A stretch of 64,000 nt of DNA, from positions 4,815-68,814 of the forward strand of contig DRPN01000138.1 in the NCBI GenBank assembly GCA_011374625.1, given 5' to 3'. The notes under the pieces were generated by a model. That model was given only the letters and a program-made list of their open reading frames with translations, made no database searches and was not told the origin of the DNA. This DNA is from Bacteroidota bacterium (GTDB taxonomy: Bacteria; Bacteroidota; Bacteroidia; Bacteroidales; VadinHA17). Every line of letters begins with the position of its first letter. The first letter of the stretch is position 1. Positions 9,387 through 38,585 of this stretch are shown here, piece by piece. The position numbers and the translations under genes are program-made.

Positions 9387-10406
9387 ATGAAGAGTTCATA
9401 TGCGGGTAAGTGTCTATTAATTACCGGAGGTACAGGCTCATTTGGCAATGCGGTTCTGAACCAATTTGTTCATTCAGATATAAAAGAAATTCGAGTTTTC
9501 AGTCGGGACGAAAAAAAACAGGATGACCTGAGGAATAAACTGAAAAATTCCCGGGTGAAATTCTATATTGGTGATGTAAGGGATTACCGTTCTGTTGAAA
9601 CGGTGGTAACCGGTGTGGATTATATATTTCATGCTGCAGCCCTCAAACAGGTGCCTTCCTGTGAGTTTTTCCCCGTTGAAGCGGTAAGAACCAATGTACT
9701 GGGGGCAGAGAATGTGATTGAAGCAGCCATCAAAAACCGGGTGAAGAAAGTCATCATCCTCAGTACCGATAAAGCAGTATACCCCATCAATGCCATGGGC
9801 CTTTCCAAAGCATTGATGGAAAAGGTAATGATAGCCCGGTCGAGAAACCTTGAACAACCGGTTTTGTGCGGAACCCGTTATGGAAATGTCATGGGCAGCA
9901 GGGGATCGGTGATACCACTTTTTATCCAACAGATCAAAAACGGGAAACCTCTTACGGTTACCGATCCCGGTATGACACGGTTCATGATGAGCCTGGAAGG
10001 AGCCGTTGATCTTGTTTTATATGCATTTGAACACGCCAGACCGGGAGATATGTTTGTCCAGAAAGCACCTGCTGCAACCATTGAAACGCTGGTAAAAGCC
10101 TTAAAAGATATCTACAAAGCCAATAATCCGGTGAAAATTATCGGCACACGGCATGGTGAAAAGCTTTATGAAACCTTAGTGAACAGGGAGGAAATGGTTA
10201 AGGCGGAAGACCTGGGGGATTACTTCCGTATCCCCGCCGATACCCGCGACCTGAATTACGATAGATATTTTTCTGTTGGAGAAAAGGATATTTCTAAAGT
10301 TAAAGAATACCATTCGCACAATACAGTGAGGCTGGATGTAGAGGGGACAAAAAGATTACTATTAAAACTGGACTTTATTCAGAAAGATATAGGCCTTTTG
10401 CAATAA
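9387..10406 (+). CDS. fnlA: UDP-GlcNAc 4,6-dehydratase/5-epimerase (FnlA / CapE / WbjB)
   Basis: 339 aa. Motifs LITGGTGSFGNAV, IRVFSRDEKKQDDLR, FHAAALKQVPSCEFFPVEAVRTN, YPINAMGLSKA and CGTRYGNVMGSRGSVIPLF closely match S. aureus Cap5E as I recall it. Confidence 0.9.
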   Translation: MKSSYAGKCLLITGGTGSFGNAVLNQFVHSDIKEIRVFSRDEKKQDDLRNKLKNSRVKFYIGDVRDYRSVETVVTGVDYIFHAAALKQVPSCEFFPVEAVRTNVLGAENVIEAAIKNRVKKVIILSTDKAVYPINAMGLSKALMEKVMIARSRNLEQPVLCGTRYGNVMGSRGSVIPLFIQQIKNGKPLTVTDPGMTRFMMSLEGAVDLVLYAFEHARPGDMFVQKAPAATIETLVKALKDIYKANNPVKIIGTRHGEKLYETLVNREEMVKAEDLGDYFRIPADTRDLNYDRYFSVGEKDISKVKEYHSHNTVRLDVEGTKRLLLKLDFIQKDIGLLQ

Positions 10407-10670
10407 ACTACTTTTTAAAAAAATAAAATTGTGACTGCCCAATGCTCAGAAAACAAGAGTATTTAATAGTAACTGGTGCATGGAGAGAAAACATAAAATT
10501 AGGAATAGCAATTTACCCAGAGATAATAATTTTTTACTTCAGCTTAATTGATGATTCCTAAAAGTAATAACAAAGAAGATGATTTTTTTATGTTTTAAAG
10601 TTTTTATCAACCAAGATGAATTATCCGAAAAAGCTGAGCATCATAATTTTTTTCTGAAACTTATCCCAAC

Positions 10671-11396
10671 ATGTATTTTTGGTCAATTCTCGATAAAAAG
10701 CGTTTTGGATTAAAGACCGCCAGACTGAATCTAAATGAGGAGGTCGTTGATGTTAATAATATTATTCAATCATTTATAACAAAAAAAGGACAGCTTTTCA
10801 TTGTTAAATGTAATTCTTTAAATAATGAAATGATTTTTCAGTTGCAAAAGAAAGGTTTCTTTCTAACTGACACGATGCTTACCTTTTCGAGGTCTTCAAT
10901 TATTAAAAGTGAAGATGTTTCTGATTTATGTGCTGAAATCGCTTATGCCCGGCCATCTGATAGTTCATTGTTGGCTGATTTGGCTCAGAGATCTTTTGCA
11001 AATTATCGTGGACATTACCATCATAATCCATTATTGGATAATAAATTATGCGATGAGGTATATACTGATTGGGCACGTAGGTTATGCATTGATAAATCCC
11101 TTGCAGATGAGGTTTTTTTAGCAATGCAGAATGGGAAATATGTTGGTTTTGCATCGTTGAAAGTCGATGAAAAGGGCATTGCAAAGGGAGGATTACTGGG
11201 CGTGATCCCTGAGTATAGAGGTAAAGGTATTAGCCGATTTCTTCATATTCACCGCTTGCTTTGGTGCAGTAATAAGAATGTTAAAGAAATTCAAGTGGAG
11301 ATAAGTGTAAATAACAAAATGTATATTAATCTTCTTATTCAAATGGGTTTTAAATTAGAATACAGTAATCAGGTTTTTCACTTAAATAATTTTTAA
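10671..11396 (+). CDS. GNAT-family N-acetyltransferase with WecD-like two-lobed layout
   Basis: 241 aa. The C-terminal GNAT core shows YVGFASLKVD..GLLGVIPEYRGKGISRFL (acetyl-CoA loop R-G-x-G). Its length and N-terminal lobe resemble TDP-fucosamine acetyltransferase WecD. It lies in an AT-rich insert between fnlA and fnlB. Confidence 0.55.
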   Translation: MYFWSILDKKRFGLKTARLNLNEEVVDVNNIIQSFITKKGQLFIVKCNSLNNEMIFQLQKKGFFLTDTMLTFSRSSIIKSEDVSDLCAEIAYARPSDSSLLADLAQRSFANYRGHYHHNPLLDNKLCDEVYTDWARRLCIDKSLADEVFLAMQNGKYVGFASLKVDEKGIAKGGLLGVIPEYRGKGISRFLHIHRLLWCSNKNVKEIQVEISVNNKMYINLLIQMGFKLEYSNQVFHLNNF

Positions 11397-11426
11397 TTTA
11401 AATAATTGAAAATTTTCTAATATCAT

Positions 11427-12548
11427 ATGATAAAAGTTGGAATAACGGGTCAATCGGGATTTATTGGCAGTCACTTATTTAACTATCTTGGTCTGAAAGA
11501 GGGCATTACCCTGGTCCCTTTTGAAGATGTTTTTTTTTCTTCGGCAGTAAAACTCAAAAATTTTGTCAGTCAATGCGATGCCATTGTTCATCTGGCTGCT
11601 ATGAACCGGCATGAAGATGAACAGGTACTGTACAAAACGAATATTGAGCTGGTTAAGAAGCTTATTCGGGCCTGCGAAGAAACAGGTTCTGCCTCACATA
11701 TCCTTTTTGCTTCTTCCATACAGGAAGAGAAGGACAATATCTATGGCAGGTCCAAACGCGAGGGCAGATTACTCTTTGAAGAATGGGCGCGCAAAAACAG
11801 CGCCAGATTCACAGGGATGATCATCCCGAATGTTTTCGGACCATTCGGACAACCTTTTTACAATTCAGTAGTGGCAACATTCTGTTACCAGTTGACACAT
11901 AATGAAATACCGGAAATCATTGTGGACGGGAACCTTAAACTGATCTATATCAATGAACTGGTGGAAGAAATCTACCGCGGGATCATTGCTTCTCCCGAAG
12001 GAGATCATATTTCCCGGTATTCGGTTCCTCATTCTTACGAAAATAAGGTTAGTAATATTCTGTCAATACTGGCAGAATATAAAGAAACCTATCTTTGGGA
12101 GGGAACGATTCCACATTTGATCACTCCTTTTGAAGTAGCCCTTTTCAATACGTTCCGTAGCTACATTTCAGAAAATCATTATCCGGTTTCTTATACTCAA
12201 CATGCAGATGAAAGAGGATCATTTGTAGAAATTATAAAAACAAACACGCCGGGACAGTTTTCCTTTTCCACTACCCGGTCGGGAATAACCCGGGGCAATC
12301 ATTTTCATATCAGAAAACTGGAAAGATTCGCCGTGATTAGGGGGAAGGCAGTCATCCGACTTCGAAGGATCGGGACCGACCGGATCATTGAGTATCCTGT
12401 TGACGGAAAGATCCCCTCTTTTATAGACATTCCGGTATGGCATACCCACCATATTACCAATACCGGGAATGGCGAGTTGTTGACCCTGTTCTGGACAAAT
12501 GAATTTTATAATCCGGAGGATCCGGATACCTATTTTGAAATGGTTTAA
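11427..12548 (+). CDS. fnlB: UDP-2-acetamido-2,6-dideoxy-hexose reductase/epimerase (FnlB / CapF / WbjC)
   Basis: 373 aa. It has an N-terminal Rossmann motif (VGITGQSGFIGSHL) and a C-terminal cupin (DERGSFVEIIKT..GQFSFSTTRSGITRGNHFH). This two-domain CapF architecture also ends in the CapF-like PEDPDTYFEMV. Confidence 0.85.
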   Translation: MIKVGITGQSGFIGSHLFNYLGLKEGITLVPFEDVFFSSAVKLKNFVSQCDAIVHLAAMNRHEDEQVLYKTNIELVKKLIRACEETGSASHILFASSIQEEKDNIYGRSKREGRLLFEEWARKNSARFTGMIIPNVFGPFGQPFYNSVVATFCYQLTHNEIPEIIVDGNLKLIYINELVEEIYRGIIASPEGDHISRYSVPHSYENKVSNILSILAEYKETYLWEGTIPHLITPFEVALFNTFRSYISENHYPVSYTQHADERGSFVEIIKTNTPGQFSFSTTRSGITRGNHFHIRKLERFAVIRGKAVIRLRRIGTDRIIEYPVDGKIPSFIDIPVWHTHHITNTGNGELLTLFWTNEFYNPEDPDTYFEMV

Positions 12549-12616
12549 ACCGTAAATGATCAAACCATGAAACATAAATTAACGGTTTTCGTAGAATCCA
12601 CTGAAATTCAAGTATA

Positions 12617-13765
12617 ATGGGTAAGTCAGGGTTAAAAGTAGCCACCATAGTCGGTACCAGACCCGAAATCATCCGGTTGAGTTCAACCATCAGGTTGCTG
12701 GACAGGCACCTGACACAGGTGTTCATTCACACGGGTCAGAACTATGATTATGAGTTGAATGAGATATTCTTTAAGGACCTTGATCTTCGCAAACCCGATT
12801 ATTTTCTGAAAGTGGATACAGGTTCGCTGGGAAGAGTATATGGTGAAACCCTCATAAAAAGCGAGGAAATTCTTAAAAGGGAAAAGCCTGATGCCGTATT
12901 GATTCTTGGTGATACCAATAGCTCTTTTGCTGCCGTGATTGCCAAGCGATTGAGAATCCCTGTATTTCATATGGAAGCGGGCAACAGAAGCTTTGATATG
13001 AATGTTCCCGAAGAGATCAACCGGCGTATGGTGGACCATATTGCCGATTTTAATCTGGTTTATACGGAACATGCCCGGAGGCATCTGCTGAGTGAGGGAT
13101 TACCGCACCGTCGGATTTATCTTACCGGTTCGCCCATGTTCGAAGTAATACATGAAAACCTGGAGAAGATACATAAGTCAACTATTCTTGCCAGACTAAA
13201 GCTTGAAAAGCAGAAATATTTTATGGTTTCCACGCACAGGGAGGAGAACGTTGACAATCCCGTTCACCTGAAAGCCATTGTGAAGGTTCTGAACAGGCTG
13301 GCTGATAAATATAGATTTCCTGTGATTGTTTCCACCCATCCGAGAACACGAAAACAACTTGACAAGCTTGACGGAAGTAAGATCAATGCCGGGATACAAT
13401 TCCTGAAACCATTTGCATTCAGCGATTATGTGCATTTGCAGATGAATGCCCTGTGTACTCTGAGCGATAGTGGAACCATCAGCGAAGAATCTGCCATTCT
13501 TTCTTTTCCTGCCATTTCCATACGACAATCCATGGAAAGGCCGGAAGCACAGGATACGGGAACCATCATACTTACAGGGTTTGATGATCAGATTGTCATG
13601 GATTCTGTTGAGCTGGTTATTGAAGAGCACAAAAAAAGGAAGTATGAACAGATACCGGATGAATATCTGGTCAGGGACACATCATGGAGGGTGCTGAAAA
13701 TCATTATAGGGAATGCCAGGCTCAGCAACAAGTGGTGGGGTATAAACTCAGCTACGGATGGATAA
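12617..13765 (+). CDS. fnlC: UDP-N-acetylglucosamine 2-epimerase, non-hydrolysing (FnlC / CapG / WbjD)
   Basis: 382 aa with VATIVGTRPEIIRL, HTGQNYD, LILGDTNS, HMEAGNRSFD and VSTHPRTRK. It is the third gene of the UDP-L-FucNAc pathway. Confidence 0.85.
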   Translation: MGKSGLKVATIVGTRPEIIRLSSTIRLLDRHLTQVFIHTGQNYDYELNEIFFKDLDLRKPDYFLKVDTGSLGRVYGETLIKSEEILKREKPDAVLILGDTNSSFAAVIAKRLRIPVFHMEAGNRSFDMNVPEEINRRMVDHIADFNLVYTEHARRHLLSEGLPHRRIYLTGSPMFEVIHENLEKIHKSTILARLKLEKQKYFMVSTHREENVDNPVHLKAIVKVLNRLADKYRFPVIVSTHPRTRKQLDKLDGSKINAGIQFLKPFAFSDYVHLQMNALCTLSDSGTISEESAILSFPAISIRQSMERPEAQDTGTIILTGFDDQIVMDSVELVIEEHKKRKYEQIPDEYLVRDTSWRVLKIIIGNARLSNKWWGINSATDG

Positions 13766-14951
13766 AGTTATTTTCCTGATCGGCGGAATAGATCTGGTTT
13801 CTGCACCTTTCAACAGATTTATCACCATTGTTAAAGCAGTACAGAAAACTGGCTACAGTGTTGATGTCGTTATGATCAGGCCAATGAACCGGGAGACCGA
13901 CTGGGAACGCCTCCTGATCAGAAATAACTCCTTTGTATACGATGGCATAACCTTCAGGAATTGTTTCACCTTATCCAGAGAGAAAGATAGCATAGTCAGA
14001 AAGCTGATCATGCGCATAAAAACTTATTATAGCTCGTATCGTATCTTATGTCATAGCCATATCATATCCGGAACATTTTTGTATATTTATTCCGTATCAC
14101 TTTTCGATCATATATTCTTCTATTTACTGAAAAAAGCTTATAGACTCAGGTATATAAATGAAAGAAATGAATATCCACAGTTAATCAGACAGCCGGAAAA
14201 ATATAAAACGTTCATCTATAAGGCTTTGATTCTGCCATGGTGTTTTAGATTATTTGATGGAATGGTCATTATGACCGGTTCATTAATACGTTTTTATAAA
14301 AGCTATACAAAGAAAAGCTGTAAAATTTTAAAAATTCCGATGACTGTCGATTTCCGGAGATTTGAATGCCAGGCTGAAAGAAACGAAAAATATATAGGAT
14401 ATGCCGGAAGCCTGAACTGCCGGAAAGACGGCCTGGATATTCTGATTAGGGCATTTCATCTGATCCATTCTGAATTTCCGGAATATTATCTCAGAATAGT
14501 TGGCGATACTGAAAATACAAAAGAAAAGGAATTCCTCAGGAATCTGTGTTCAGATCTGCAGATAAAGGACAGGGTAATTTTTATGGGAGAGAAAAACAGA
14601 AATGAAATACCGGAGTTTATCTGTATGGCCTCATTGCTGGTACTCCCCCGGCCTGAAAGCAAGCAGGCTGAGGGGGGATTCCCTACAAAATTGGGTGAAT
14701 ATCTTGCATCCGGCAATCCGGTGGTGGTATCCGATGTGGGAGAAATTTCCGAATATCTGCGTGACGGGCAAGATGCCTATTTTGTTGAACCAGGTAATAC
14801 GCAAGATCTGGCAAATAAAATCCGACTGGCATTAAGCAATTATTCTGAAGCAGAGCGAATTGGGATTGAGGGGAAAAGAACCGCCAGACATTATTTTGAT
14901 TATTTTTCTCATGTGAATCATATCGAAGAATTTTTTGATTCTTTTAAATAG
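13758..14951 (+). CDS. Glycosyltransferase GT4
   Basis: 397 aa with YIGYAGSL and LLVLPRPESKQAEGGFPTKLGEYLASGNPVVVSDVGEISEYL. The start overlaps fnlC by 8 nt. It is a paralogue of the GT at 20701. Confidence 0.8.
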   Translation: MDKVIFLIGGIDLVSAPFNRFITIVKAVQKTGYSVDVVMIRPMNRETDWERLLIRNNSFVYDGITFRNCFTLSREKDSIVRKLIMRIKTYYSSYRILCHSHIISGTFLYIYSVSLFDHIFFYLLKKAYRLRYINERNEYPQLIRQPEKYKTFIYKALILPWCFRLFDGMVIMTGSLIRFYKSYTKKSCKILKIPMTVDFRRFECQAERNEKYIGYAGSLNCRKDGLDILIRAFHLIHSEFPEYYLRIVGDTENTKEKEFLRNLCSDLQIKDRVIFMGEKNRNEIPEFICMASLLVLPRPESKQAEGGFPTKLGEYLASGNPVVVSDVGEISEYLRDGQDAYFVEPGNTQDLANKIRLALSNYSEAERIGIEGKRTARHYFDYFSHVNHIEEFFDSFK

Positions 14952-14962
14952 ATCATTCTCTG

Positions 14963-16084
14963 ATGGTGGTAGGTTTACATATTGGGAGACCATGGAAGTA
15001 TGCAGATTCTGAACAGGTTTATGAACAGATACTGAGATACAATAAAATAGATTATATCAAACTGAATCTGAATGATATAGATTTCTGGGAGCAAGTTGAA
15101 CAACTTGATTATTTTATTTACAGATTTTATGTAGCCACCGATTTAAAAGAACAGGCTAATGCCATTCTTCCTGTCATTGAGAATTATTACGGGATAAAAT
15201 GTTTTCCCAATCAGGCTACCTGCTGGATGTACGACGATAAGATTAAAGAGTATTATTTGTTGAAAAAGCATGGCTTTCCTGTCATTGAGACGCATATTTT
15301 CTGGGATGAAGAAACCGCTCTGAATTGGATTGAAACAGCATTATTCCCTCTGGTTTTCAAACTTAAATCCGGTTCACGTTCCCAGAATGTTATCCTTGTT
15401 AAGGATAAACAGCAGGCAAGGCTGCTGGTAAAAAAAATGTTTGATAAGGGCATTGACCCTGATAAATCTTCGTTTTTTATGAAGAACCGCCTCAGGGGGC
15501 AGGGGTATAAAGAATTTCTCTGGGATCAGGCCTTGCGGGGGTACAGATTTATCCGGGGCGTGGATATTTCCCCGTATTGGGAGATTCATAAAAACTATGT
15601 ACTGTTTCAGGAGTATCAGCCAAATAATCTGTACGATACAAGGGTTACGGTTATTGGCGACAGAGCCTATGCTTTAATACGTTACAACAGGCGTCAGGAT
15701 TTCCGGGCTTCAGGTAGCGGGAAATATAACCTGGACCGGTCAAAAATTGATAAACGTTGCCTCGATATTGCTTTTAAAATATCAGATACACTGGGATTCC
15801 AGTCCATGGCATATGATTTTTTATTTAATATTAACGGTGATCCTATAATATCGGAGATATCCTATACATATCCCTGTATTGATCAGTACGAAGAACCAGG
15901 ATATTTCGACAGGGATTTTAACCATCATGCGGGACACTTTTGGGCAGAATACTTTCACCTGATTGATTTACTGGGATTGCCCGATCTGAAACAACCTGAT
16001 CATATCAAGCTTGCCAGAAAGGGAATAAAGAAATGGAAATTGAAATACCTGAATAAGAAAAAACAGGGTTATACGGTAGTGTGA
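14963..16084 (+). CDS. ATP-grasp fold ligase (RimK-like), copy A
   Basis: 373 aa with KIKEYYLLKKHGFPVIETHIF, PLVFKLKSGSRSQNVILV, LFQEYQPN and TRVTVIGDRAYALIRYNRRQDFRASGSG. It is a paralogue of 18355..19389. Confidence 0.75.
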   Translation: MVVGLHIGRPWKYADSEQVYEQILRYNKIDYIKLNLNDIDFWEQVEQLDYFIYRFYVATDLKEQANAILPVIENYYGIKCFPNQATCWMYDDKIKEYYLLKKHGFPVIETHIFWDEETALNWIETALFPLVFKLKSGSRSQNVILVKDKQQARLLVKKMFDKGIDPDKSSFFMKNRLRGQGYKEFLWDQALRGYRFIRGVDISPYWEIHKNYVLFQEYQPNNLYDTRVTVIGDRAYALIRYNRRQDFRASGSGKYNLDRSKIDKRCLDIAFKISDTLGFQSMAYDFLFNINGDPIISEISYTYPCIDQYEEPGYFDRDFNHHAGHFWAEYFHLIDLLGLPDLKQPDHIKLARKGIKKWKLKYLNKKKQGYTVV

Positions 16085-16239
16085 AAATATAAATCATTAT
16101 ACCACGAGTTGATTTTGAACGGAATAAAAATTCTTCCCGAAAAGATTGGTGAACGGGTTGAGTGTTTATCTGGCTTTTTCTTTTCCTGAAGTGAATCACA
16201 GGGTTAAAGCATTAATACCTGCGATAAATGTTCTGACAC

Positions 16240-17322
16240 ATGGAAATATCTCTGGTAGAAATAGAGAACCCGGTAACCTGGGATGAGGAACTTATAGAAT
16301 ATCAGGCAAGTATTTTTTTGTCTTCCCTCTGGCTGCAATCGGTGGCTACTCAGTCCAGGATCCCTGTATTTTTCAAGTTTTTCGCAGATTATAAGGAGAT
16401 TGCCCGGATATCCGGTCTGATGATTTGCCCGGCGGCTGACAAATTGAAGTTATTGTTTTTTTATTCAGGCATTGTTTCCAAATTGCGGGATCCTGAAATA
16501 ATCTCGAAATGCAGGCTTGCCTTATTGAATTATGCAAGGACAAACGGCATTTCAAGGATTATTATACGATCATACGACGATAAAAACTGTACTCAGACAC
16601 GATTACCGGCTTTTAAAATAAACAAACGGGTTGAATATGTCATATGCCTGGAAAGGGATAAGGATATGATCCTGGAAGGATTTCACCGAAGTGCACGGCG
16701 TGTAGTTCGTAAAGCCAGGACAGCCGGTGTGAGCGTGGGAATAAGCAAGTCGGTTCAATTATACGACCTTTTGTTTGAAATGATGACCGAAACCAGACAT
16801 AGACGGAAACGCAAGGGATATGGAGATTATAATGCTCTGAGCATTCCCTTTTTTGACCGGAGCGCTATGCTAAATCTGTTAAAAGAAGATAAAGCTTCCC
16901 TGTTTTATGCAGAAGATAAAGAAGGAATTTTGAGTGTAGTATATATCTTCCATCATATAAATGTGTCATATGCTATATTAACCGGAACCACAGCAAGAGG
17001 TTATGAATTGGATGTGTCCGCCTGTCTTTTGTATGAAATTGCTATAACATTGAAAGATAAAGGATGCAGGTATCTTAATCTTGGAGGTGTTCCTTCAGGA
17101 AAGAAAAATTCCGGAATTGTGCAGTTCAAAAAAAGCCTGGGAACGGATGTCGTAGAATCCTGTGAAGAATCAACAAATTTCATTTTATTCCCCTGGACAT
17201 TGTTTAATCCGTTACTCTTCCTGAGAAGAAAGCTTCCCGATCGTCCTTTTTTCAGATTTTGTAAGAAAGCAATGAGGAAATTTATGGAAATAATATTAAC
17301 TCCTGACAGTAGCGTATTATAA
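16240..17322 (+). CDS. FemAB-like / GNAT-fold (Acetyltransf_6-type) transferase
   Basis: 360 aa. The layout is typical of FemAB-related proteins: SARRVVRKARTAGVSV, then YAILTGTTARGYELDVSACLLYEIAITLKDKGCRYLNLGGVP......GIVQFKKSLG. Confidence 0.6.
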   Translation: MEISLVEIENPVTWDEELIEYQASIFLSSLWLQSVATQSRIPVFFKFFADYKEIARISGLMICPAADKLKLLFFYSGIVSKLRDPEIISKCRLALLNYARTNGISRIIIRSYDDKNCTQTRLPAFKINKRVEYVICLERDKDMILEGFHRSARRVVRKARTAGVSVGISKSVQLYDLLFEMMTETRHRRKRKGYGDYNALSIPFFDRSAMLNLLKEDKASLFYAEDKEGILSVVYIFHHINVSYAILTGTTARGYELDVSACLLYEIAITLKDKGCRYLNLGGVPSGKKNSGIVQFKKSLGTDVVESCEESTNFILFPWTLFNPLLFLRRKLPDRPFFRFCKKAMRKFMEIILTPDSSVL

Positions 17323-17356
17323 TTTAATTCTTAATTTTAATGAAAAGAAGAAACTG

Positions 17357-18238
17357 ATGCTTAACCTGATTGATCCGATAGAACTGGCAAAAAAAACAGA
17401 AAATGTTGTTTGCCGGGGAAACAAAAGAAAGTACCTGAGATTTGGCACTACACCGGATTATAAAACAGGTGTGGCGACTGGATATGCAGTAGGCTGTAAT
17501 CTGCGGTGTGTTTTTTGCTGGGCCCATGAGACCCGTGACAATAATGAATTGGTCCGGGATTTTTATTCTCCCCGTGAGGTTTTTGACATACTGCATGAAA
17601 TTATTGGTCGAAATCCCAAAATAGATAAAATCAGAATATCCGACGGAGAACCAACCCTGTGCCGGGATCACCTGATGGAACTGATTGAAATTACTGAAAA
17701 ATCAGATGTCGGTCAGTTTGTTCTCGAGACAAACGGCATTCTTTTTGGATATGATGAAAACTATGTAAAAGATTTATCGGCGTTTAAAAAAATCTATGTC
17801 AGACTTGATCTCAAAGCCGGGACTCCGGAGGCTTTCAGTAAAAAGACAGGGGCCATCCCCGAAGCGTATGAATACCCTTTTCAGGCAATAAGACACCTGA
17901 TGAAGTATGGAATAAACTTTGGAGTAGCCGCCATGAGTGCTGATCCCCGTTTTATGGATCCACTGGAGCGCGTCGGCCTCATTACCCGGGTTGGTGAAAT
18001 AGACCCTGCCCTGGTGCTCAGACTTGAGGAGGAAATGACAGTTCTTGTACCCACCGCAAAGAAACGGTTGAATGCATATGGCTGGAAAGCCGGAAAAGTC
18101 AAATATCCTTTTTATGTCATCGGTCCCCTTCGGAAATATGTTCAGGTATCATACATGCCGATCAAATCCCTGAAAAAACAAAAAGTTAATTTTGGTTTTT
18201 TATTGAAAAACCTGATACAATTGAAACATGGGATTTAG
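17357..18238 (+). CDS. Radical SAM enzyme, unknown subfamily
   Basis: 293 aa. It carries a CX3CX2C cluster motif (GCNLRCVFCW), then ISDGEPTL and VLETNG, typical of the radical SAM core. No SPASM or B12 domain is evident. Confidence 0.75.
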   Translation: MLNLIDPIELAKKTENVVCRGNKRKYLRFGTTPDYKTGVATGYAVGCNLRCVFCWAHETRDNNELVRDFYSPREVFDILHEIIGRNPKIDKIRISDGEPTLCRDHLMELIEITEKSDVGQFVLETNGILFGYDENYVKDLSAFKKIYVRLDLKAGTPEAFSKKTGAIPEAYEYPFQAIRHLMKYGINFGVAAMSADPRFMDPLERVGLITRVGEIDPALVLRLEEEMTVLVPTAKKRLNAYGWKAGKVKYPFYVIGPLRKYVQVSYMPIKSLKKQKVNFGFLLKNLIQLKHGI

Positions 18239-18354
18239 GACCTATCTGTTGAAGCGTGATATTTTTCCTGCTTTGATGAAGAAATAGCAGAGGTGTACAA
18301 AAAATGCATCGTTTGAAAGAATCTGAATGATCCGTACTTTTCTTAATTTAACAT

Positions 18355-19389
18355 ATGATGCAGGCAGGGATATTTAATATTCATACAGATCGGTTTTCAA
18401 CACGTTTGGGAAAATACGAACGGATACTGACTCATAATGGAATAAAATGTATCCGGTTAGATATTCATGATCCCGACTTCTGGAAGCATTTGGAAAACCT
18501 GGATTTGTTTATTTATGAGGGACAGAAGCATACGGTTGCAACAGAAATAGCGCGTTCTGTTTTACCTGTGATTGATCATAACAAACATATAAAATGCATT
18601 CCTGGTATTTCAACATTCTGGCCGTGTAATGACAGAATAAAAAGCTATTATTTGTTAAGGCAAACCGGATTTCCGGTCCCCCAAACCTATATATTCTGGC
18701 ACAAATCCAGGGCACTGGAGTGGGTTAGAAATGCCCCCCTGCCGCTCGTTTTCAAACTCAAGACAGGTATCGGTGCGCAAAATTCATTTGTAATTAATTG
18801 CCAAAAACAGGCAAAATTATTAATAAACCGAATGTTTGGGAAGGGGGTTTGTGTAAGCGAAATTTCTTCCTCCCGAGATCAGGCTTATAAGCTCTATCCT
18901 GAACGTATTTTGGATAAGGCTTCGTCTGAAATGCGCGGCATTTTTTCAAATATGTCTGAATTCATATGGGAAAAGCAAAAGAATTATGTTCTTTTCCAGG
19001 AATATATCTCCGAAAGAAAATCTGAAGTAAGAATACTGGTTATTGGCAACCGGGCATTTGTTCTGGAGGCACATAGTCATGATCAATACGGATCAGTCCG
19101 AAACAATTTAAATAAAGGCTATCAGGGAACGGAAGAACTTTGCATGGAGATGGCATTTGATATTTGCAGAAAGCTTAAAGTTCGATACATCACAGGGATA
19201 TTCATAGTGGATAAGGAGAATCGGCCGTTTATCACTGATCTTACATTTGATATTCCTTCAGATACAGAGGTGGTGAAGGGATACTGGGACCATGAGTTTC
19301 GTTGGCATAATGGCCCTTTCTGGCCGGAATATTTTTGTTTGGAAGATCTCCTGGTTATCCATGACATGAAGCATCCGGATATTTCCTGA
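18355..19389 (+). CDS. ATP-grasp fold ligase (RimK-like), copy B
   Basis: 344 aa, collinear with copy A. Shared blocks are VLPVIDHNKHIKCIPG, RIKSYYLLRQTGFPVPQTYIF, PLVFKLKTGIGAQNSFVI, LFQEYI and VRILVIGNRAF. Confidence 0.75.
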   Translation: MMQAGIFNIHTDRFSTRLGKYERILTHNGIKCIRLDIHDPDFWKHLENLDLFIYEGQKHTVATEIARSVLPVIDHNKHIKCIPGISTFWPCNDRIKSYYLLRQTGFPVPQTYIFWHKSRALEWVRNAPLPLVFKLKTGIGAQNSFVINCQKQAKLLINRMFGKGVCVSEISSSRDQAYKLYPERILDKASSEMRGIFSNMSEFIWEKQKNYVLFQEYISERKSEVRILVIGNRAFVLEAHSHDQYGSVRNNLNKGYQGTEELCMEMAFDICRKLKVRYITGIFIVDKENRPFITDLTFDIPSDTEVVKGYWDHEFRWHNGPFWPEYFCLEDLLVIHDMKHPDIS

Positions 19390-19482
19390 AATAATTCAGG
19401 GATCTGTGAACAATTTTAAAATAAAATGATGTAATTTAATATTTCAAAATATATACCTATCCATGTAGAAACAAACTCAGAT

Positions 19483-20676
19483 ATGAACATCAGTATAGTT
19501 CAAGATATTTTCCTGATGGAGAAGAACACCGGTAAAGATTCTCTGGATTTGTTGTTTACCGGAGATTTTTTCCCTCATGAGACTTCTTCTAGTCTCATAC
19601 TTCAAAAGAATTTTGAAGCCCTTTTCAATGATTTTCTTTCTGTTCTTCATCATGCGGATCTGGCTGTGACCAATCTGGAATGTCCCCTTACCGATAAAAA
19701 ATCTCCGATAAAAAAGTCCGGTCCGGTTCTGAAAGCCCCACCCGATACAGCAGAAGCGCTGAAACATGGGAATATTGGGGTTGCCTGTCTGGCGAACAAC
19801 CATATCATGGACTATGGCACAGAAGGACTTTCTGACACATTGAAGCACCTGGATTCTGCCGGAATACAACATGTTGGCGCAGGATTGACGTTAGAACAGG
19901 CCATGGATCCGTTAATTATTACCAGAAAAGGTCTGAAAATCGGTATTATCAATGTGGCTGAACATGAGTTTTCTATTGCCACAGATCATTCTGCAGGAGC
20001 CGCCCCCATAGATGAAATAACGAATTATTATCAGATCAGGAAAGCCAGATCTGCTGCTGACCTGATCATATTAGTCCTGCATGGTGGCCATGAAATGTAT
20101 CCGTTTCCCAGTCCACGGATGGTGAAATTATACCGCTTTTATGCCGATCTGGGTGCAGATGTGATTATAGGGCATCATCCTCATGTGTTTTCTGGGTATG
20201 AAGTGTATAAACGGGTTCCTATTTTTTACAGTTTGGGTAATTTCCTGTTCGATGCGCCGGGACGCGTTAAACATTGGTACAGAGGATATGCAGTTTATTT
20301 AAAGCTAAGCGGGAAGAATATATCTGACATCTATCTCATACCTTATTCGCAGTTTGTTAATGGCCATGGCATATCGTTGCTAAATATAAAAGAAGTTGCT
20401 GAATTTAATGAGGATATACTGAGGTATAACCGGATCATTTCAGATGAAAAAAGCTTGAATGATCAATTTAAAAAATACATTTGCGAGCAGAGGGGAAACT
20501 ACCTGGCAGTATTTTTAAGTATGAGCCGGTACAAAAGAAGATTGCTGCAATTAAAATTTTTTCGTAACTTATTTTTTGGCCGTATCAGATTATTGCGTTT
20601 GTTAAATCAATTCAGGTGTCAATCGCACAGAGATGTAATGACAGAGACACTCAAACATGAATTGAATACCAAATAA
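19483..20676 (+). CDS. CapA/PgsA-family (PGA_cap) metallophosphatase-fold protein
   Basis: 397 aa with LLFTGDFFPHE, NLECPLT, LANNHIMDYGTEGL, LHGGHEMYPFP and ADVIIGHHPHVFSGYEVY..PIFYSLGNFLFD. Confidence 0.75.
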   Translation: MNISIVQDIFLMEKNTGKDSLDLLFTGDFFPHETSSSLILQKNFEALFNDFLSVLHHADLAVTNLECPLTDKKSPIKKSGPVLKAPPDTAEALKHGNIGVACLANNHIMDYGTEGLSDTLKHLDSAGIQHVGAGLTLEQAMDPLIITRKGLKIGIINVAEHEFSIATDHSAGAAPIDEITNYYQIRKARSAADLIILVLHGGHEMYPFPSPRMVKLYRFYADLGADVIIGHHPHVFSGYEVYKRVPIFYSLGNFLFDAPGRVKHWYRGYAVYLKLSGKNISDIYLIPYSQFVNGHGISLLNIKEVAEFNEDILRYNRIISDEKSLNDQFKKYICEQRGNYLAVFLSMSRYKRRLLQLKFFRNLFFGRIRLLRLLNQFRCQSHRDVMTETLKHELNTK

Positions 20677-20700: not shown

Positions 20701-21996
20701 TTGTACCTGCATTCAACAAACAATTCACGGCGAACATTCAGATTTGTCAACAACAGCGAAAATAACAGAAGCAAAAGAGAACAATACTATTTTTTGAAAA
20801 ACAGTCAACATAATATATTGATCGTAACGGATAATCCATTTCCTGTCGGTCTCGCGGCAACACACCGGATAATTGCCTATGCCAGGGGGTTCATTACCAA
20901 TGGATGTAGGGTACAGGTTATTTGCTGCAAAAAAACCGAATGCAAGACCAGTGTGCACAACAGGGCAACCCATGGTATCTACCGGGGAATAGAATTCCGG
21001 TATATTCCCGGAACGACAGTAAAGTCAAAATACTTGCTGAAAAGAAAAATGGATGGTGTCTGGGGTGGTCTGAAATTACTGTCATGGAGTATTATGCATT
21101 TTAATGACAGACCGGTTGTTATTTATTATGGTTTGTCAACAGCAACAGCAATTATACTTAAGTTAAGTTCATTACTAAAAGGAAGTATATTGTTGAAAGA
21201 AGAAAATGAACATATCAGTATTCGACTGGCCTCGAAAAACATATTTTCAGGATTTGTTTTCAAACATATTCATTATCATTTGTTTGATGGCGTCCTGTTA
21301 ATAACAAAAAAACTGATTGAATATTTTCAGAAAAACTATCCGAAAAAAAAAATCCACCATGTACCTATTCTTGTTGATGCTGAAAACTTGCCACAGCGGG
21401 AAAACAGGTCAAACAAGATCACTTATTGCGGAATATTTGACAATGACGGGGTGGATACATTAATCAAGGCTTTTCAAATGGTTGTAAAAAATTTTCCTCA
21501 ATATCAACTCCAGTTAATAGGAATGGCCAAGAAAGATCGTATTGAAAAAGAATTGAGAGCCCTGGTGAATCAGGCAAATCTAACTGATCAGGTGATCTTT
21601 CGCGGCCCACAACCACATGAGGTGGTGGGGTACGAATTATCTAAATCAGCCCTACTGGTGCTTGCACGACCGGAAAGCATTCAGGCTCAGTATGGATTCC
21701 CGACAAAACTCGCAGAATATCTGATCACATCTAATCCAGTGGTGGTTACATCGGTTGGGGAAATTCCAGATTATTTAAAAGACAACAAAAATGCATACCT
21801 GGCTGTTCCTGGGGATGTGATGACCCTGTCGGAGAAAATCCAGGAAGCATTAAGTTTCCCTCTCAGGGCGGCGAAAATTGGCGCTGAGGGCCGAAATGCC
21901 GCTTTGGCCTATTTTAATAACATATATGAGACGAAAAAAATCATAGAGTGGATTGAAAAAAATTTAATAAGGTCCGGGGAAAATAATAAGTATTGA
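20701..21996 (+). CDS. Glycosyltransferase GT4
   Basis: 431 aa from TTG at 20701. An in-frame TTG at 20794 (LKNSQHNILIVTDNPFP...) is a more typical GT N-terminus, so the start is uncertain. The C-terminus LLVLARPESIQAQYGFPTKLAEYLITSNPVVVTSVGEIPDYL is paralogous to the GT at 13758. Confidence 0.75.
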   Translation: MYLHSTNNSRRTFRFVNNSENNRSKREQYYFLKNSQHNILIVTDNPFPVGLAATHRIIAYARGFITNGCRVQVICCKKTECKTSVHNRATHGIYRGIEFRYIPGTTVKSKYLLKRKMDGVWGGLKLLSWSIMHFNDRPVVIYYGLSTATAIILKLSSLLKGSILLKEENEHISIRLASKNIFSGFVFKHIHYHLFDGVLLITKKLIEYFQKNYPKKKIHHVPILVDAENLPQRENRSNKITYCGIFDNDGVDTLIKAFQMVVKNFPQYQLQLIGMAKKDRIEKELRALVNQANLTDQVIFRGPQPHEVVGYELSKSALLVLARPESIQAQYGFPTKLAEYLITSNPVVVTSVGEIPDYLKDNKNAYLAVPGDVMTLSEKIQEALSFPLRAAKIGAEGRNAALAYFNNIYETKKIIEWIEKNLIRSGENNKY

Positions 21997-22011: not shown

Positions 22012-23046
22012 ATGATAAAAATAATTAAATCGGGGTACAGGAAAATCTATTATCATTTACCGGTGATGATCCGTGGAGTGGTTTCCGGTAATCTATACAG
22101 ATGGGGAATAAAACCAACCGTGAACAAACATGTCAGGTCTCCTTTTAACAGGGTTATGGTTACATTATCCGCTGATTTCGAAATGGCCTGGGCATTCAGG
22201 TTTTCAAAAAAAAGCGGAAATGATGCGGAATCCATCGGTCTTCAGGAAAGGGAAAACGTTCCTGAGATCATCAGACAACTGGATCATTATCACATCCCGG
22301 TGACATGGGCTACCGTGGGGCATTTGTTTCTGGAGGGATGTAAGAGGGAAAATGGGCTGCCCCATAGCAACATGCCCCGGCCTGATTTTTTTGAGAACAA
22401 GAACTGGCGATTCCAGGAAGGTGACTGGTATCAGCACGATCCCTGTTCAAACTACAAAGAAGCACCTGCCTGGTATGCGCCCGATCTGGTGGATATGATT
22501 ATGTATGCAAAAGCCGGCCATGAGATCGGTTGCCACACATTTTCACATACCGACTTTACCTACCGGAACTGTTCTGAATCCCTGGCTTTGGCTGAAATAA
22601 AAGAATGCAAGAAACATGCCGTGGAGAGAGGAGTTGTACTCAGGAGTATGGTGTTTGCCGGTGGTGCCGCTGGCAATTATGAAACCCTGAAAGAAGAAGG
22701 ATTCATATGTTACAGGTATAATGGGGTATACGATATTGACATACCTTTTATCGATCGCTTTGGGCTGGTTGCATTTCCCAGCAGTTATTGCCTGGGGGAA
22801 AGGGGATACAACTGGAATGCTGCTACATGTTTTGATGTCGTAAAGTCACATATCGCCAAGGCAATCAGTTATAATAGTACATGTCATTTATGGTTTCACC
22901 CTTCCATGTCTCCATGGTATCTGAAACAGGTGTTTCCGCAGTTGATGAAATATTTGGCCGAACTGAGAGATGCAGGGAAGATCGATATTCTTACCATGGG
23001 CGAGGCTGCTGTTAAATTGAAAAATAGCCAGAAAATTGTTGAATGA
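22012..23046 (+). CDS. Polysaccharide deacetylase (NodB homology / CE4)
   Basis: 344 aa with VTLSADFEMAWAF, IPVTWATVGHLF and GHEIGCHTFSHTDF (His-His metal motif). Confidence 0.75.
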   Translation: MIKIIKSGYRKIYYHLPVMIRGVVSGNLYRWGIKPTVNKHVRSPFNRVMVTLSADFEMAWAFRFSKKSGNDAESIGLQERENVPEIIRQLDHYHIPVTWATVGHLFLEGCKRENGLPHSNMPRPDFFENKNWRFQEGDWYQHDPCSNYKEAPAWYAPDLVDMIMYAKAGHEIGCHTFSHTDFTYRNCSESLALAEIKECKKHAVERGVVLRSMVFAGGAAGNYETLKEEGFICYRYNGVYDIDIPFIDRFGLVAFPSSYCLGERGYNWNAATCFDVVKSHIAKAISYNSTCHLWFHPSMSPWYLKQVFPQLMKYLAELRDAGKIDILTMGEAAVKLKNSQKIVE

Positions 23047-23099: not shown

Positions 23100-24806
23100 A
23101 TGGCAAAATTGCTGTACGTTTGTTTCAGAAGGAACAGGCCTTCATATTTTTCAAGAGAAAATATTGAGATCTTATCTGGGAGACTGGAGCCTGATAATAT
23201 TAAATTTCCTTTACCCAGGATCATTTCGGGAAGGGGAATACTTGCCATAATATTCAATGAAAATCCTGTTGTGAAGATTGAAGATTCCGGCGTTTGTCTT
23301 GGAACCATGGTCGGCCGTCAGGACCACTGGTGGCTTCCGAAACAGGATGTTCCCGACGGGACATATGCCCTCTTCAGAAGTAATGACAAATTTGTGGAAG
23401 TGATTACCGATGCCACAGCCAGCCGTACAGTTTGGTATTATTTTGATGAGGAGCTGTTCATTGCTTCCACGTCCCAGCGTGCCCTGGTATTTTTCCTGAG
23501 AGACTTTCAGTTCAATGAGAAGGTGATTCCCTGGATGCTGTCATCGGGAACCCTCGGTCCGGGAAATTCATGGGACAGCGGGTTAAAAATGCTGGAAGCC
23601 AATTCTTCTCTTTTGCTTGACAGAAAAGAATGGAAAATATCCATTAACCGGGAAGAACTGGAATATGAAGAAATCTGCAGAGACAAAAAAAATCATGAGG
23701 CCGAATTGCTCAGGGTATTGAAAGAAACTTTTCACAGGCTTGATCTGAATTACTCAAAGTGGATATTAACACTTTCCGGCGGATCTGATAGCAGAAGTAT
23801 TTTATATATGCTCAGGGATATTGATAACCTGACATGTATTACATGGGGGCTTGCTTCTTCAAGAGACCAGAAAAACAATGATGCGTACATAGCTACTGCG
23901 CTTGCACGAAGGTACAATAAGGATCACCGTTTCTATCTGACCCATTCTTCCAGTGAAACGGCAGAGCAAATTTTCAGAAGGTATCTGGTTTGCAGTGAAG
24001 GCAGAATTGATCATATTATTGGTTATGTGGATGGTTTTCGAATCTGGAAGGAATTATTCAACGAGGGAGTAAGAGGTGTTATCAGAGGAGATCAGGAATT
24101 TGGACAGGCCCCGGTATTTTCTGAGTATCATGTAAGGTTGAAGGTTGGATTTCCTGTTGCTTCCGATTTTACCAATCTGGAAGGTATCGGGATATATGGG
24201 ATGAATGATCAAATTATTCCTGACCGGCTTCTGAAAAAAGACAATGAAACATTGGCAACATACCGCGACAGGGTTTACCATGAATTCAGACAGTCACACG
24301 TTATGGCCGCACTAAATGATATTAAGAGTACTTACCTGGAAATTATCAATCCTCTATTATGTAAAAACATCCTTCGAACAATTCGAACACTGCCCGATAA
24401 CCTGAGAACAAACAAAAAGCTTATTAAGGAAATACTGAACAACATGGACCCATCCATTCCTTTTGCCCGGCATATTGCCATCGACAGAAGTGAAAATTTC
24501 TTAAGCACCAAAAAGGTTCGGGATGAGATGATAAACGAAGTCGGTTCATCTGGAGTTTTATCCCTGTTTCCGGATGAATTCCAGGGATTATTGCTGTGTG
24601 ACAGGGAGCAAAACAGCTATAAACGGAGAATTGAACAGATCATAACGAAAAAAGTGAAGCGTCATTTCTCAAATAAATTCAAGGGTATGCTCAAAAGCAC
24701 TATTGCCAAACCGAGTGTGAACAATCATGTGCTTTTATTCCGTGTTTATATCATTTCTAAAATGAAAAAGCTTTTGGAAGAGGATGCCAGGACAATAAAA
24801 ACTTAA
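23100..24806 (+). CDS. Asparagine-synthetase-B-like ATP-pyrophosphatase (amidoligase) lacking the N-terminal catalytic Cys
   Basis: 568 aa. It has the PP-loop LTLSGGSDSRSILYML. An N-terminal Ntn-like domain is recognisable (TASRTVWYYFDEELFIASTSQRALVFFL), but the protein starts MAKLLY rather than MC. Confidence 0.7.
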   Translation: MAKLLYVCFRRNRPSYFSRENIEILSGRLEPDNIKFPLPRIISGRGILAIIFNENPVVKIEDSGVCLGTMVGRQDHWWLPKQDVPDGTYALFRSNDKFVEVITDATASRTVWYYFDEELFIASTSQRALVFFLRDFQFNEKVIPWMLSSGTLGPGNSWDSGLKMLEANSSLLLDRKEWKISINREELEYEEICRDKKNHEAELLRVLKETFHRLDLNYSKWILTLSGGSDSRSILYMLRDIDNLTCITWGLASSRDQKNNDAYIATALARRYNKDHRFYLTHSSSETAEQIFRRYLVCSEGRIDHIIGYVDGFRIWKELFNEGVRGVIRGDQEFGQAPVFSEYHVRLKVGFPVASDFTNLEGIGIYGMNDQIIPDRLLKKDNETLATYRDRVYHEFRQSHVMAALNDIKSTYLEIINPLLCKNILRTIRTLPDNLRTNKKLIKEILNNMDPSIPFARHIAIDRSENFLSTKKVRDEMINEVGSSGVLSLFPDEFQGLLLCDREQNSYKRRIEQIITKKVKRHFSNKFKGMLKSTIAKPSVNNHVLLFRVYIISKMKKLLEEDARTIKT

Positions 24807-27104: not shown

Positions 27105-27857
27105 TTAAATATAACAATTCAATATTTTTCTTAAAACTTTGCCCATCTCTTTGAGTATATATACGGGATACGATTCATAATTTGATTCTTCGACCAGTAT
27201 ACCCCCAAAGCTGTCCTTAAAGTTATTGATTCCCCGTAATGATTCATCAGTGGTTTGATAAGCATATCCTCCGAAATCATAGGTTACAAATCCCTGCTCG
27301 CGGAAAAAAAGCATATCCTGATAGTGCAAATACCTGTTGGCACATCCAATGAGCGACCGTTCTTCGTTATTTAATTCTGGGTTCCAGCTGTTTGAAACGG
27401 AATGTAATGCCCTGACCCGTTGGATGGACCTGTCAAGAAGATAGGAGTGATAAACAACGATGGGACTATCCTTTTGGTATGCCATGCGTACGATCAGAGC
27501 ATCTCCGTATATTTTCAGCTTCTTTTCTGTTATGGTTCCTTCCAGTTTTCTGTGTTTATTGAAAGCATTGTAAGCTGCTATAAATGATGGAAGATGGTTG
27601 GTGGTTTCACAGATTATATCGCTTTTGATGGCCTTTCTGATGCCCCAGCGGGTATTCTTATTAAACGATTCTGTAAATCTGTTATCAGCAATATTGATCA
27701 GTTTTGTATATTTTGGAAATCTTTTAAATCCAATTCTTATTCCGGTATAAAATGATTGTAGGTAGTAGTTAAATAATCCATCCTTCAGCGAAGGATTATT
27801 TGCATACAGTATCAATTTTCTCTTTACCGGTATTTTTGTTATGAAAAATGTGAGCAT
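27105..27857 (-). CDS. FemAB-like / GNAT-fold transferase (short form), opposite strand to the locus
   Basis: 250 aa with TRWGIRKAIKSDI, VVYHSYLLDRSIQRVRALHSVSN, RYLHYQDMLFFREQGFVTYDFGG and GINNFKDSFGG. The layout matches the C-terminal part of 16240..17322. Confidence 0.55.
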   Translation of the reverse strand: MLTFFITKIPVKRKLILYANNPSLKDGLFNYYLQSFYTGIRIGFKRFPKYTKLINIADNRFTESFNKNTRWGIRKAIKSDIICETTNHLPSFIAAYNAFNKHRKLEGTITEKKLKIYGDALIVRMAYQKDSPIVVYHSYLLDRSIQRVRALHSVSNSWNPELNNEERSLIGCANRYLHYQDMLFFREQGFVTYDFGGYAYQTTDESLRGINNFKDSFGGILVEESNYESYPVYILKEMGKVLRKILNCYI

Positions 27858-33441: not shown

Positions 33442-33463
33442 AAATAGATTGTAATAATTCCGG

Positions 33464-38506: not shown

Positions 38507-38585
38507 TTTCTTTCTTGAGAAAAGATATTCTTATGTTCCAGGGAGTTATAAAAAACCTCTTTTCGGGAAGGGGATTCGCACAGGA

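Follow-up and report, generated by a model that had tools for sequence, protein, structure and literature searches.

What is made by a polysaccharide locus that carries, side by side, genes for two ATP-grasp ligases, a FemAB-like transferase, a radical S-adenosylmethionine (rSAM) enzyme and a CapA/PgsA-family protein? Such a block occupies positions 14963-20676 of a 64,000-nucleotide stretch of DNA (the window) from an uncultured Bacteroidales bacterium, where it sits in a Wzx/Wzy-type surface-polysaccharide locus. We lean slightly towards the reading that the five open reading frames (ORFs), together with a CE4 polysaccharide N-deacetylase and GT4-family glycosyltransferases (GTs), put one or more amide-linked amino acids on a sugar of the repeat unit during its cytoplasmic assembly; the substrates, the order of steps and the chemistries of the CapA-like and rSAM enzymes we infer from sequence. 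The block itself brings together, in a lineage-specific arrangement, smaller gene sets that recur elsewhere.

The five genes are those that a preliminary description of this DNA had listed as consecutive and co-oriented: its coordinates are exact, every ORF is intact and on the plus strand, and Pfam confirms its domain calls for all five above gathering scores. ATP-grasp ligase 1 (AG1, 14963-16084, 373 aa) matches RimK (PF08443) at 6e-13 (49 bits against a cut-off of 21), and ATP-grasp ligase 2 (AG2, 18355-19389, 344 aa), a divergent AG1 paralog with 39% identity over 332 aa, does so at 6e-10 (39 bits). Between them lie a Fem/VimA-like GNAT-fold transferase, putatively an aminoacyl transferase (16240-17322, 360 aa; Acetyltransf_6 6e-8, 33.3 bits against a gathering score of 22; FemAB 2e-7, 30.6 bits against 24), and a single-cluster rSAM enzyme (17357-18238, 293 aa; Radical_SAM, PF04055, 8e-19, 68.9 bits against 29.5). 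The last gene encodes a CapA/PGA_cap-family predicted metalloenzyme, MslH-like and predicted to be cytoplasmic (19483-20676, 397 aa; PGA_cap 7e-68, 229 bits against 27). Two paralogous GT4-family genes (32-39% identity) frame the block: GT1c directly upstream (13758-14951, plus strand; Glycos_transf_1 2e-30) and GT1d directly downstream of the CapA-like gene (20701-21996, plus strand; Glycos_transf_1 1e-19). Because both the flanking GT4 pair and the ATP-grasp pair are paralogs, the layout suggests that a unit of GT plus ATP-grasp was duplicated and now surrounds the Fem-rSAM pair. The CE4 gene that the same description had placed downstream (22012-23046, plus strand) passes Polysacc_deac_1 with 27 bits against 23.1.

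Comparison with a diverged relative indicates that these genes are real and functional, not chance ORFs, because all five remain intact there at dN/dS ratios of 0.06-0.32. The Bacteroidales metagenome-assembled genome L166 (GCA_049975425.1) carries the order Wzc-Wzy-Wzx-GT-FnlABC-GT-AG1-Fem-rSAM-AG2-CapA-GT-CE4-572aa-GT, then a 294-aa ORF and a second Fem-like ORF. Nucleotide identity to the window across the block is 75%, and all five ORFs are uninterrupted. Protein identities are 88% for AG1, 66% for the Fem-like protein, 88% for the rSAM enzyme, 55% for AG2 and 69% for the CapA-like protein, with dN/dS of 0.064, 0.26, 0.071, 0.32 and 0.10, respectively (dS about 0.8-2.2). Purifying selection on all five genes is clear, and strongest for AG1 and the rSAM gene; the CE4 proteins are 83% identical. 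Intergenic gaps in the window measure 11-155 bp, all on the same strand, and a scan that used no Bacteroidota promoter model gave promoter- and terminator-like matches at background, none of them in the gaps. Since none of the five proteins has a predicted transmembrane segment or signal peptide, they are predicted to work on the cytoplasmic side, ahead of repeat-unit flipping by Wzx.

The ATP-grasp ligases and the CapA-like protein

Amide-forming amino-acid chemistry is the best reading of the sequence and model comparisons, because the ATP-grasp proteins are nearest to RimK, LysX and ArgX and because a Fem-like homolog is fused to a methionyl-tRNA synthetase (MetRS)-like aminoacyl-tRNA synthetase. 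A PDB profile search with the ATP-grasp family (1,505 proteins at E<=1e-5, typically ~350 aa and ~50% identical) ranked RimK first (1e-6), followed by LysX and ArgX. The structure prediction proposed in the preliminary description bore out this kinship for AG1, whose AlphaFold2 (AF2) model (predicted local distance difference test, pLDDT, 81) has ArgX, LysX and RimK as its best Foldseek matches (TM-score by target length, TMt, 0.64-0.76; E 4e-16 to 1e-12). The ATP-binding Lys (FKLK), the Mg-binding Asp (AYDF) and the Glu are kept. AG1 and AG2 differ from these relatives in that family members have Ser where E-x-N has Asn (D-L-T in AG2), in an insertion of ~45 aa (AG1 residues 165-210, low model confidence), in scores of 70 and 51 bits that stay below the 143.4-bit TIGR00768 rimK_fam cut-off, and in a setting of glycan loci rather than of ribosomal protein S6 or LysW. 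RimK, LysX and ArgX activate a glutamate-type carboxylate, to which an amino acid is joined through its amine, and PDB depositors name them as amino-acid or glutamate ligases on carrier proteins (LysW, ribosomal protein S6).

The ATP-grasp ligase recurs with a soluble CapA/MslH-like protein, the pair usually lying between GT4 genes and often having CE4 after it. We examined 80 metagenomic loci anchored on the ATP-grasp family, all of whose sampled members (80 of 80) are closer to AG1 than to AG2. Of the 49 loci with enough upstream sequence, 19 have a CapA-like gene directly preceding the ATP-grasp gene on the same strand, and 23 have one no more than 3 kb away. The ATP-grasp gene is directly followed by a GT1-family gene in 21 of 51 loci, and CE4 comes within the next 4.5 kb in 8 of 38. 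Forty-one of the loci reach 10 kb, and 37 of these have recognisable glycan genes. GT1c-like genes precede CapA-ATP-grasp in L105, L110, L117 and L139, and the order in L139, FnlA-FnlB-FnlC-GT1c-CapA-ATP-grasp-GT, is the window layout minus Fem, rSAM and the second ATP-grasp gene. The order FnlABC-GT-AG1 is also found in L087 and L166. A literature search found no description of a soluble CapA-like protein paired with a RimK-like ATP-grasp ligase.

Unsupervised clustering of the same neighbourhoods returned other recurrent partners: DUF362, UDP-sugar 6-dehydrogenase (UGDH), ATPgrasp_ST, Wzy, GT2 and a weak Asn-synthase-like protein different from that of the window. The DUF362 protein (~490 aa; L090:8532-10007) fills the CapA slot directly upstream of the ATP-grasp gene in 5-13 loci and occurs together with a CapA-like gene in one locus only (L107). 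No PDB relative of it was found by sequence, and a possible link to a 257-aa protein encoded beside archaeal rSAM genes was dropped, the similarity being negligible (29 aa, E 6e-4).

The CapA-like protein is better compared with an epimerase than with the poly-gamma-glutamate capsule proteins that the preliminary description had mentioned for its family, being predicted cytoplasmic and without PgsB or PgsC. Its best NCBIfam match is MslH (NF038314; 82 bits, 3e-23), and among solved and characterised proteins MslH alone (8gq9, 3e-20) shows detectable similarity. MslH depends on Ca(II) and epimerises a C-terminal residue whose carboxylate is free (PMC10406935); in its substrate, the lasso-peptide precursor MslA, this residue is Trp (PMC10406935, PMC8179263; PDB 8gq9). 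Its catalytic dyads are His88/Asp91 and His295/Asp11, and its Ca ligands are Glu44, Asn87, His259 and His261 (PMC10406935). The window protein is soluble like MslH and conserves equivalents of seven of these eight residues (Glu44, Asn87, His88, Asp91, His259, His261 and His295). It differs in falling far below the NF038314 cut-off of 700 bits and in carrying a 140-aa C-terminal extension; its substrate would be glycan-borne, and no lasso-peptide genes are present in the window.

The same pair could instead work as an amidoligase and a phosphoesterase, an explanation that we judge unlikely. The ATP-grasp ligase would amidate a uronate with a phosphorylated amine (ethanolamine phosphate, serinol phosphate or similar) and the CapA-like enzyme would then remove the phosphate, with no epimerisation and no peptide. 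Cj1438C and Cj1435 do so during capsule chain growth (PMC11800379), but they belong to other families (TupA-like and HAD, respectively). The fold of the PGA_cap domain is calcineurin-like and its metal residues resemble those of YmdB (PMC10406935), whereas the sole characterised CapA-like relative is an epimerase with a single metal site. The GT-CapA-ATP-grasp-GT order fits amidation before the next GT acts, yet the nearest ATP-grasp relatives take amino acids as nucleophiles. UGDH, a source of uronates, accompanies 7 of the 41 longer ATP-grasp loci; in the window it is absent, as are phospho-amine biosynthesis genes among the ORFs scanned.

A product that is not attached to glycan at all seems very improbable. 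The block, merely located in the locus, would in that case make a polymer resembling poly- or oligo-glutamate, or else a small peptide of non-ribosomal origin, as could be supposed from the place of CapA/PgsA in poly-gamma-glutamate systems and from PDB entry names by which RimK makes poly-alpha-glutamate tails. PgsA and CapA share the PGA_cap domain with the window protein, but they are membrane-anchored, which the window protein is not, and the ATP-grasp partner here is not a Mur-ligase-like PgsB. The preliminary description had noted that PgsB and PgsC are missing, and a Pfam scan of window ORFs (at least 150 aa, minus short ones nested opposite annotated genes, plus one of 100 aa) likewise finds neither (Mur-ligase or CapC type), although PgsC is ~150 aa and a shorter copy could be missed. 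No exporter or carrier gene lies within the block. Nor is the block at home mainly outside glycan loci, an outcome that the preliminary description had said would speak against its proposal: every component family, anchored independently, is found in them, and all anchors (ATP-grasp, Fem-like, Bacteroidota rSAM and both Fem fusions described below) are interleaved there with GT4 genes.

A broader proposal, which we regard as doubtful in its entirety, would make soluble CapA plus RimK/LysX-like ATP-grasp a widespread cytoplasmic ligase/epimerase system that acts on lipid-linked glycan. An L-amino acid, plausibly Glu or another acidic one, would be added and then epimerised to D, which would make the couple a glycan-directed MslH counterpart and give PgsB-independent D-amino-acid or oligo-glutamyl decoration; here, an aminoacyl-tRNA-dependent Fem-like transferase and an archaeal-type rSAM enzyme would extend the system towards a short modified peptide side chain. 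If CapA-like proteins are epimerases of glycan-borne residues, this would inform the long-debated role of PgsA/CapA.

The Fem-like transferase and the rSAM enzyme

Gene fusions connect the Fem-like family both to aminoacyl-tRNA synthetases and to CapA. Its best NCBIfam match is TIGR03019 (pepcterm_femAB), at 22 bits against a cut-off of 260, and an exhaustive HMMER search recovered 635 representative clusters. One member, P0271 (901 aa, L170:1576-4281), joins a MetRS-like class I aminoacyl-tRNA synthetase to a Fem-like domain (31% identity to the window protein, E 5e-40) and stands in the order [MetRS::Fem]-Fem-like-C-methyltransferase-short-chain dehydrogenase/reductase (SDR)-RmlC-like. Another, P0309 (715 aa, L169:5295-7442), joins PGA_cap to a Fem-like domain (30% identity, E 4e-30) in the order Wzy-heparinase II/III-CapK-like ligase-[CapA::Fem]-Wzx. 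The MetRS::Fem fusion lends indirect support to aminoacyl-tRNA as donor of the Fem-like enzyme, and the CapA::Fem fusion supports a single pathway for CapA-type and Fem-type enzymes. A literature search did not find either fusion described. A further member, P0248 (703 aa), is a tandem Fem-like::Fem-like protein.

The Fem-like genes would form a second recurring set, a VimA-like Fem/GNAT transferase with CE4, by analogy with the logic of VimE and VimA. Three Fem-like homologs on long contigs lie in Bacteroidota glycan loci, one by a TupA-type ATP-grasp gene, one by a pyruvyl transferase gene and Wzx, and one by CE4, UGDH and a second Fem-like gene. In L173, CE4 adjoins Fem-like genes.

The rSAM enzyme belongs to a family without assigned function. 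Its cluster motif is CX3CX2C (C47/C51/C54), and these are the only invariant Cys residues among 28 family sequences, so an auxiliary cluster is not predicted. None of the 28 passes a curated NCBIfam model, the window protein reaching at best 46 bits against 490. The AF2 model (pLDDT 90.5) best matches pyruvate formate-lyase-activating enzyme (TM-score by query length, TMq, 0.57-0.59; TMt 0.66-0.69; 14-18% identity), a generic match of minimal rSAM barrels from which the reaction cannot be named. Bacteroidota homologs are ~60% identical. At ~50% identity, homologs abound in many archaeal phyla, Planctomycetota, Sumerlaeota, Nitrospirota and others, with at least 574 among the 600 candidate stretches listed from species-representative genomes.

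Within Bacteroidota, this rSAM family is a third recurring set, always in glycan loci in the lineages examined and with varying partners. All six Bacteroidota-type lineages examined carry it in or beside glycan genes; three have a Fem-like gene within two genes of it, and three have a gene of the AG family directly downstream. The layouts include a divergent Fem-like / rSAM-Wzx-NeuB (L002); Fem-like(-)-lipoprotein(-)-rSAM(+) by a pyruvyl transferase gene and Wzx (L001/L167); rSAM-AsnB-UGDH-amine oxidase-ATPgrasp_ST-CE4-methyltransferases (L083/L168); rSAM-Wzx (L085); rSAM by SDR and GT genes (L081); and rSAM followed directly by an AG-family ATP-grasp gene (L174). Two candidate partners were rejected: the 367-aa gene between Fem and rSAM in L001/L167 encodes a lipoprotein with no similarity to the ATP-grasp profile, and the 344-aa ORF upstream of rSAM in L081 has no similarity to Fem-like proteins and an ion-channel domain in Pfam.

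Outside Bacteroidota, the rSAM genes have no conserved neighbours: when ORFs within 5 kb were clustered across 80 loci, no neighbour occurred in more than 9, and the next-largest clusters are antisense artefacts. Most copies outside the Bacteroidota glycan branch lack its ~50-aa C-terminal extension (loci L003-L080). A literature search found no description of a glycan-locus branch of this otherwise stand-alone archaeal-type family.

Assembly of the block and its proposed product

The preliminary description had proposed that the five genes may be a single module, a view that neighbourhood mining does not sustain. The full block was found in one other lineage only (L166), with the partial version rSAM-ATP-grasp in L174. 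Because the rSAM, ATP-grasp and Fem anchors agree, the block is a lineage-specific assembly of the three smaller sets and not a general unit. A literature search for the five-gene combination returned nothing relevant.

An assembly of this kind raises the question of whether the genes share a product at all, and we consider it rather unlikely that they do not. Five independent tailoring enzymes could be adjacent by chance and act on different sugars or positions, for example by acyl-CoA-dependent GNAT N-acylation, uronate amidation and rSAM sugar modification, with no common product and no peptide chain. Glycan loci are mosaic, and this one is low in G+C (0.34-0.40 in window 1-32000 against 0.43-0.50 in the housekeeping part, 42000-64000), as is common among horizontally exchanged glycan loci. 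A ~1 kb gap inside it holds a 100-aa ORF (27957-28259, minus strand; weak DDE transposase similarity, 24.9 bits, below cut-off) that is possibly an insertion sequence remnant marking a recombination joint. Elsewhere the sub-modules are separate and their partners vary widely, yet the exact order AG1-Fem-rSAM-AG2-CapA-GT-CE4 is kept in L166 with every gene under purifying selection, rSAM then ATP-grasp recurs in a third lineage (L174), and the CapA::Fem fusion ties members of different sub-modules to one pathway. The Fem-like family matches GNAT Acetyltransf_6 about as well as FemAB, as GNAT N-acylation would have it, whereas the MetRS::Fem fusion favours an aminoacyl donor.

The reading that we slightly favour, amino-acid attachment to a repeat-unit sugar, would proceed in a few cytoplasmic steps. 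CE4 would remove an N-acetyl group and expose a sugar amine, to which the Fem-like enzyme would transfer an aminoacyl group, probably from aminoacyl-tRNA. One or both ATP-grasp ligases would then convert a carboxylate to an acyl phosphate and couple it to the amine of an amino acid; because the window has no UDP-sugar dehydrogenase, that carboxylate would belong either to an attached acidic amino acid or to a uronic acid supplied by another part of the genome. Next, the CapA-like protein may epimerise a residue bearing a free alpha-carboxylate from L to D, as MslH does, and the rSAM enzyme may act on a C-H bond, in either the sugar or the aminoacyl group, before the next GT4 continues chain assembly. 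Of the amide-linked amino acids or peptide stub envisaged in the preliminary description, the amino-acid amide chemistry is supported, as the best reading, by RimK/LysX/ArgX kinship and the MetRS::Fem fusion; the peptide stub is not set apart from single amino acids.

Several observations weigh against this reading. None of the five proteins reaches an NCBIfam equivalog or subfamily cut-off, so their assignments stand at superfamily level. The Fem-like donor could be acyl-CoA instead of aminoacyl-tRNA. Without UGDH, the window offers no local uronic-acid carboxylate to the ligases. An equivalent of MslH Asp11 could not be aligned, even with an N-terminal fragment alignment, although residues 27-28 form a GD motif, and MslH-type residues are probably family-wide in PGA_cap and may not separate an epimerase from a hydrolase. 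Neighbourhoods add to these points: rSAM and Fem-like genes occur in none of the 80 ATP-grasp loci; the three Fem-anchored loci have no adjacent rSAM, CapA or AG-family ATP-grasp gene; and in L001/L167 an unrelated lipoprotein gene splits Fem-like and rSAM genes that are divergently oriented.

The locus may bear on how glycans acquire amino acids. Such substituents alter charge, antigenicity, and phage or immune recognition of surface glycans, and in Bacteroidota they supply the amine that anchors secreted proteins, the Wbp/Vim linking sugar being an example; not many enzymes that attach such residues are known. Soluble CapA-like protein plus RimK-like ATP-grasp is a common uncharacterised pair (~40% of sampled ATP-grasp loci) that may be a glycan-acting ligase/epimerase couple. 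The fusions of VimA-like transferases with an aminoacyl-tRNA synthetase and with CapA bear on the donor substrate of VimA, and the rSAM family, abundant in archaea and Planctomycetota, has been recruited into Bacteroidota glycan loci.

The surrounding locus and known systems

The locus has the gene content of a surface-polysaccharide cluster. The window holds Wzc, Wzx, nine GT4-type genes, FnlABC, a WecE-type transaminase, a Bac_transf initiating transferase and Wza. Upstream of the block the order is Wzc-like kinase, multi-transmembrane protein (its L166 ortholog has a Wzy_C domain), Wzx, GT4, WecE-type transaminase, GT4, FnlA, WecD-like GNAT, FnlB, FnlC and GT4; downstream it is GT4, CE4, a 568-aa protein, GT4, a 311-aa ORF, a minus-strand weak Fem-like ORF and two GT4 genes. 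The FnlA, WecD-like GNAT, FnlB and FnlC-type genes for N-acetyl-L-fucosamine (L-FucNAc) lie directly 5' of GT1c (9387-13765, plus strand; Polysacc_synt_2 and 2C, Polysacc_synt_C, Epimerase_2). Besides L-FucNAc, the glycan probably contains 4-acetamido-4,6-dideoxygalactose (Fuc4NAc), because a DegT-family (WecE-type) transaminase (6776-7912) passes the dTDP-4-amino-4,6-dideoxygalactose transaminase equivalog cut-off (564 bits against 375) in company with the WecD-like GNAT (10671-11396). RmlA and RmlB are absent from the window.

Two downstream ORFs echo enzymes discussed above. The 568-aa protein (23100-24806, plus strand), which the preliminary description had called an AsnB-like amidoligase, has a weak Asn-synthase (PP-loop) similarity that does not carry that name: the match (19.2 bits, below 21) is confined to residues 224-282, and a GATase domain, an NCBIfam match and a TIGR03108 match were all looked for in it and not found. 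It is 78% identical to its L166 counterpart, with a dN/dS of 0.125, and has no detectable similarity to the 578-aa AsnB-like neighbour seen in L134-type loci. The second, shorter Fem-like ORF (27105-27857, minus strand, 250 aa; FemAB 19.5 bits, below cut-off) is in the same position in L166, with 88% identity over the 104 aa available.

Beyond the glycan genes, the minus strand at 31845-41464 places both a sortase-like system and a type IX secretion system (T9SS) beside a locus possibly making an amino-acid-bearing sugar. It encodes a PorE-like T9SS component (31845-32870), a PorP/SprF T9SS component (33464-34453), a CHU_C cargo protein (34636-37236) that has a pectate-lyase-like beta-helix, an exosortase-family protein (37436-38506) scoring high enough to pass the signature model TIGR04178, the Bac_transf initiating transferase (38918-40168) and Wza (40700-41464). 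Farther on, the first 26 residues of a 163-aa ORF (60270-60761, minus strand) match ribosomal protein Thx (32 bits against 29.7); its long C-terminal remainder may stem from ORF boundary placement.

The preliminary description could name no characterised pathway with exactly these genes, yet two partial precedents exist. The first is the Wbp/Vim pathway of Porphyromonas gingivalis and Tannerella forsythia (PMC7468200), whose product is a seryl- or glycyl-sugar and whose enzymes include the CE4 deacetylase VimE, the GNAT/pepcterm_femAB-like Ser/Gly transferase VimA, the AsnB-like amidotransferase WbpS and the GT VimF. Swapping VimA changes Ser to Gly in the product, and related gene sets adjoin exosortases in PEP-CTERM exopolysaccharide (EPS) loci (PMC7468200). 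The window shares with this pathway the phylum Bacteroidota, a Fem/GNAT transferase with TIGR03019 as best match, CE4 (at family level only), GT4 genes and a weak AsnB-like ORF in the WbpS position, and, as in the PEP-CTERM EPS and Wbp/Vim settings, exosortase-family and T9SS genes are nearby. The logic of VimE and VimA, in which a sugar is deacetylated and its amine then aminoacylated, fits the Fem-like and CE4 genes. Unlike Wbp/Vim, the window has no WbpA/B/D/E and no UDP-sugar dehydrogenase, and its AsnB-like ORF is sub-threshold and lacks GATase; conversely, Wbp/Vim has no counterparts of the two ATP-grasp ligases, the CapA-like enzyme and the rSAM enzyme. The Fem-like/CE4/AsnB-like part appears to be of the kind known from Wbp/Vim and PEP-CTERM EPS loci, a likeness at family-profile level; membership is not established, because TIGR03019 and Asn-synthase scores fall below their cut-offs and the Wbp genes are absent.

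The second precedent is Cj1438C/Cj1435 of the Campylobacter jejuni HS:2 capsule (PMC11800379). There, as in the window, an ATP-grasp enzyme is found among GTs; it amidates a sugar carboxylate while the chain is being extended, its product is then trimmed by a second enzyme, and the next glycosyl transfer is gated by the amidation, which must come first (PMC11800379). The two systems differ in their parts: Cj1438C is a TupA-like ATP-grasp fused to GT2, with a HAD phosphatase as partner and a phospho-amino-alcohol as nucleophile, whereas the window ligases are RimK/LysX-like and free-standing, accompany a PGA_cap protein and would use amino acids. Glycan amidation by an ATP-grasp enzyme thus has a biochemical precedent, in a different ATP-grasp family.

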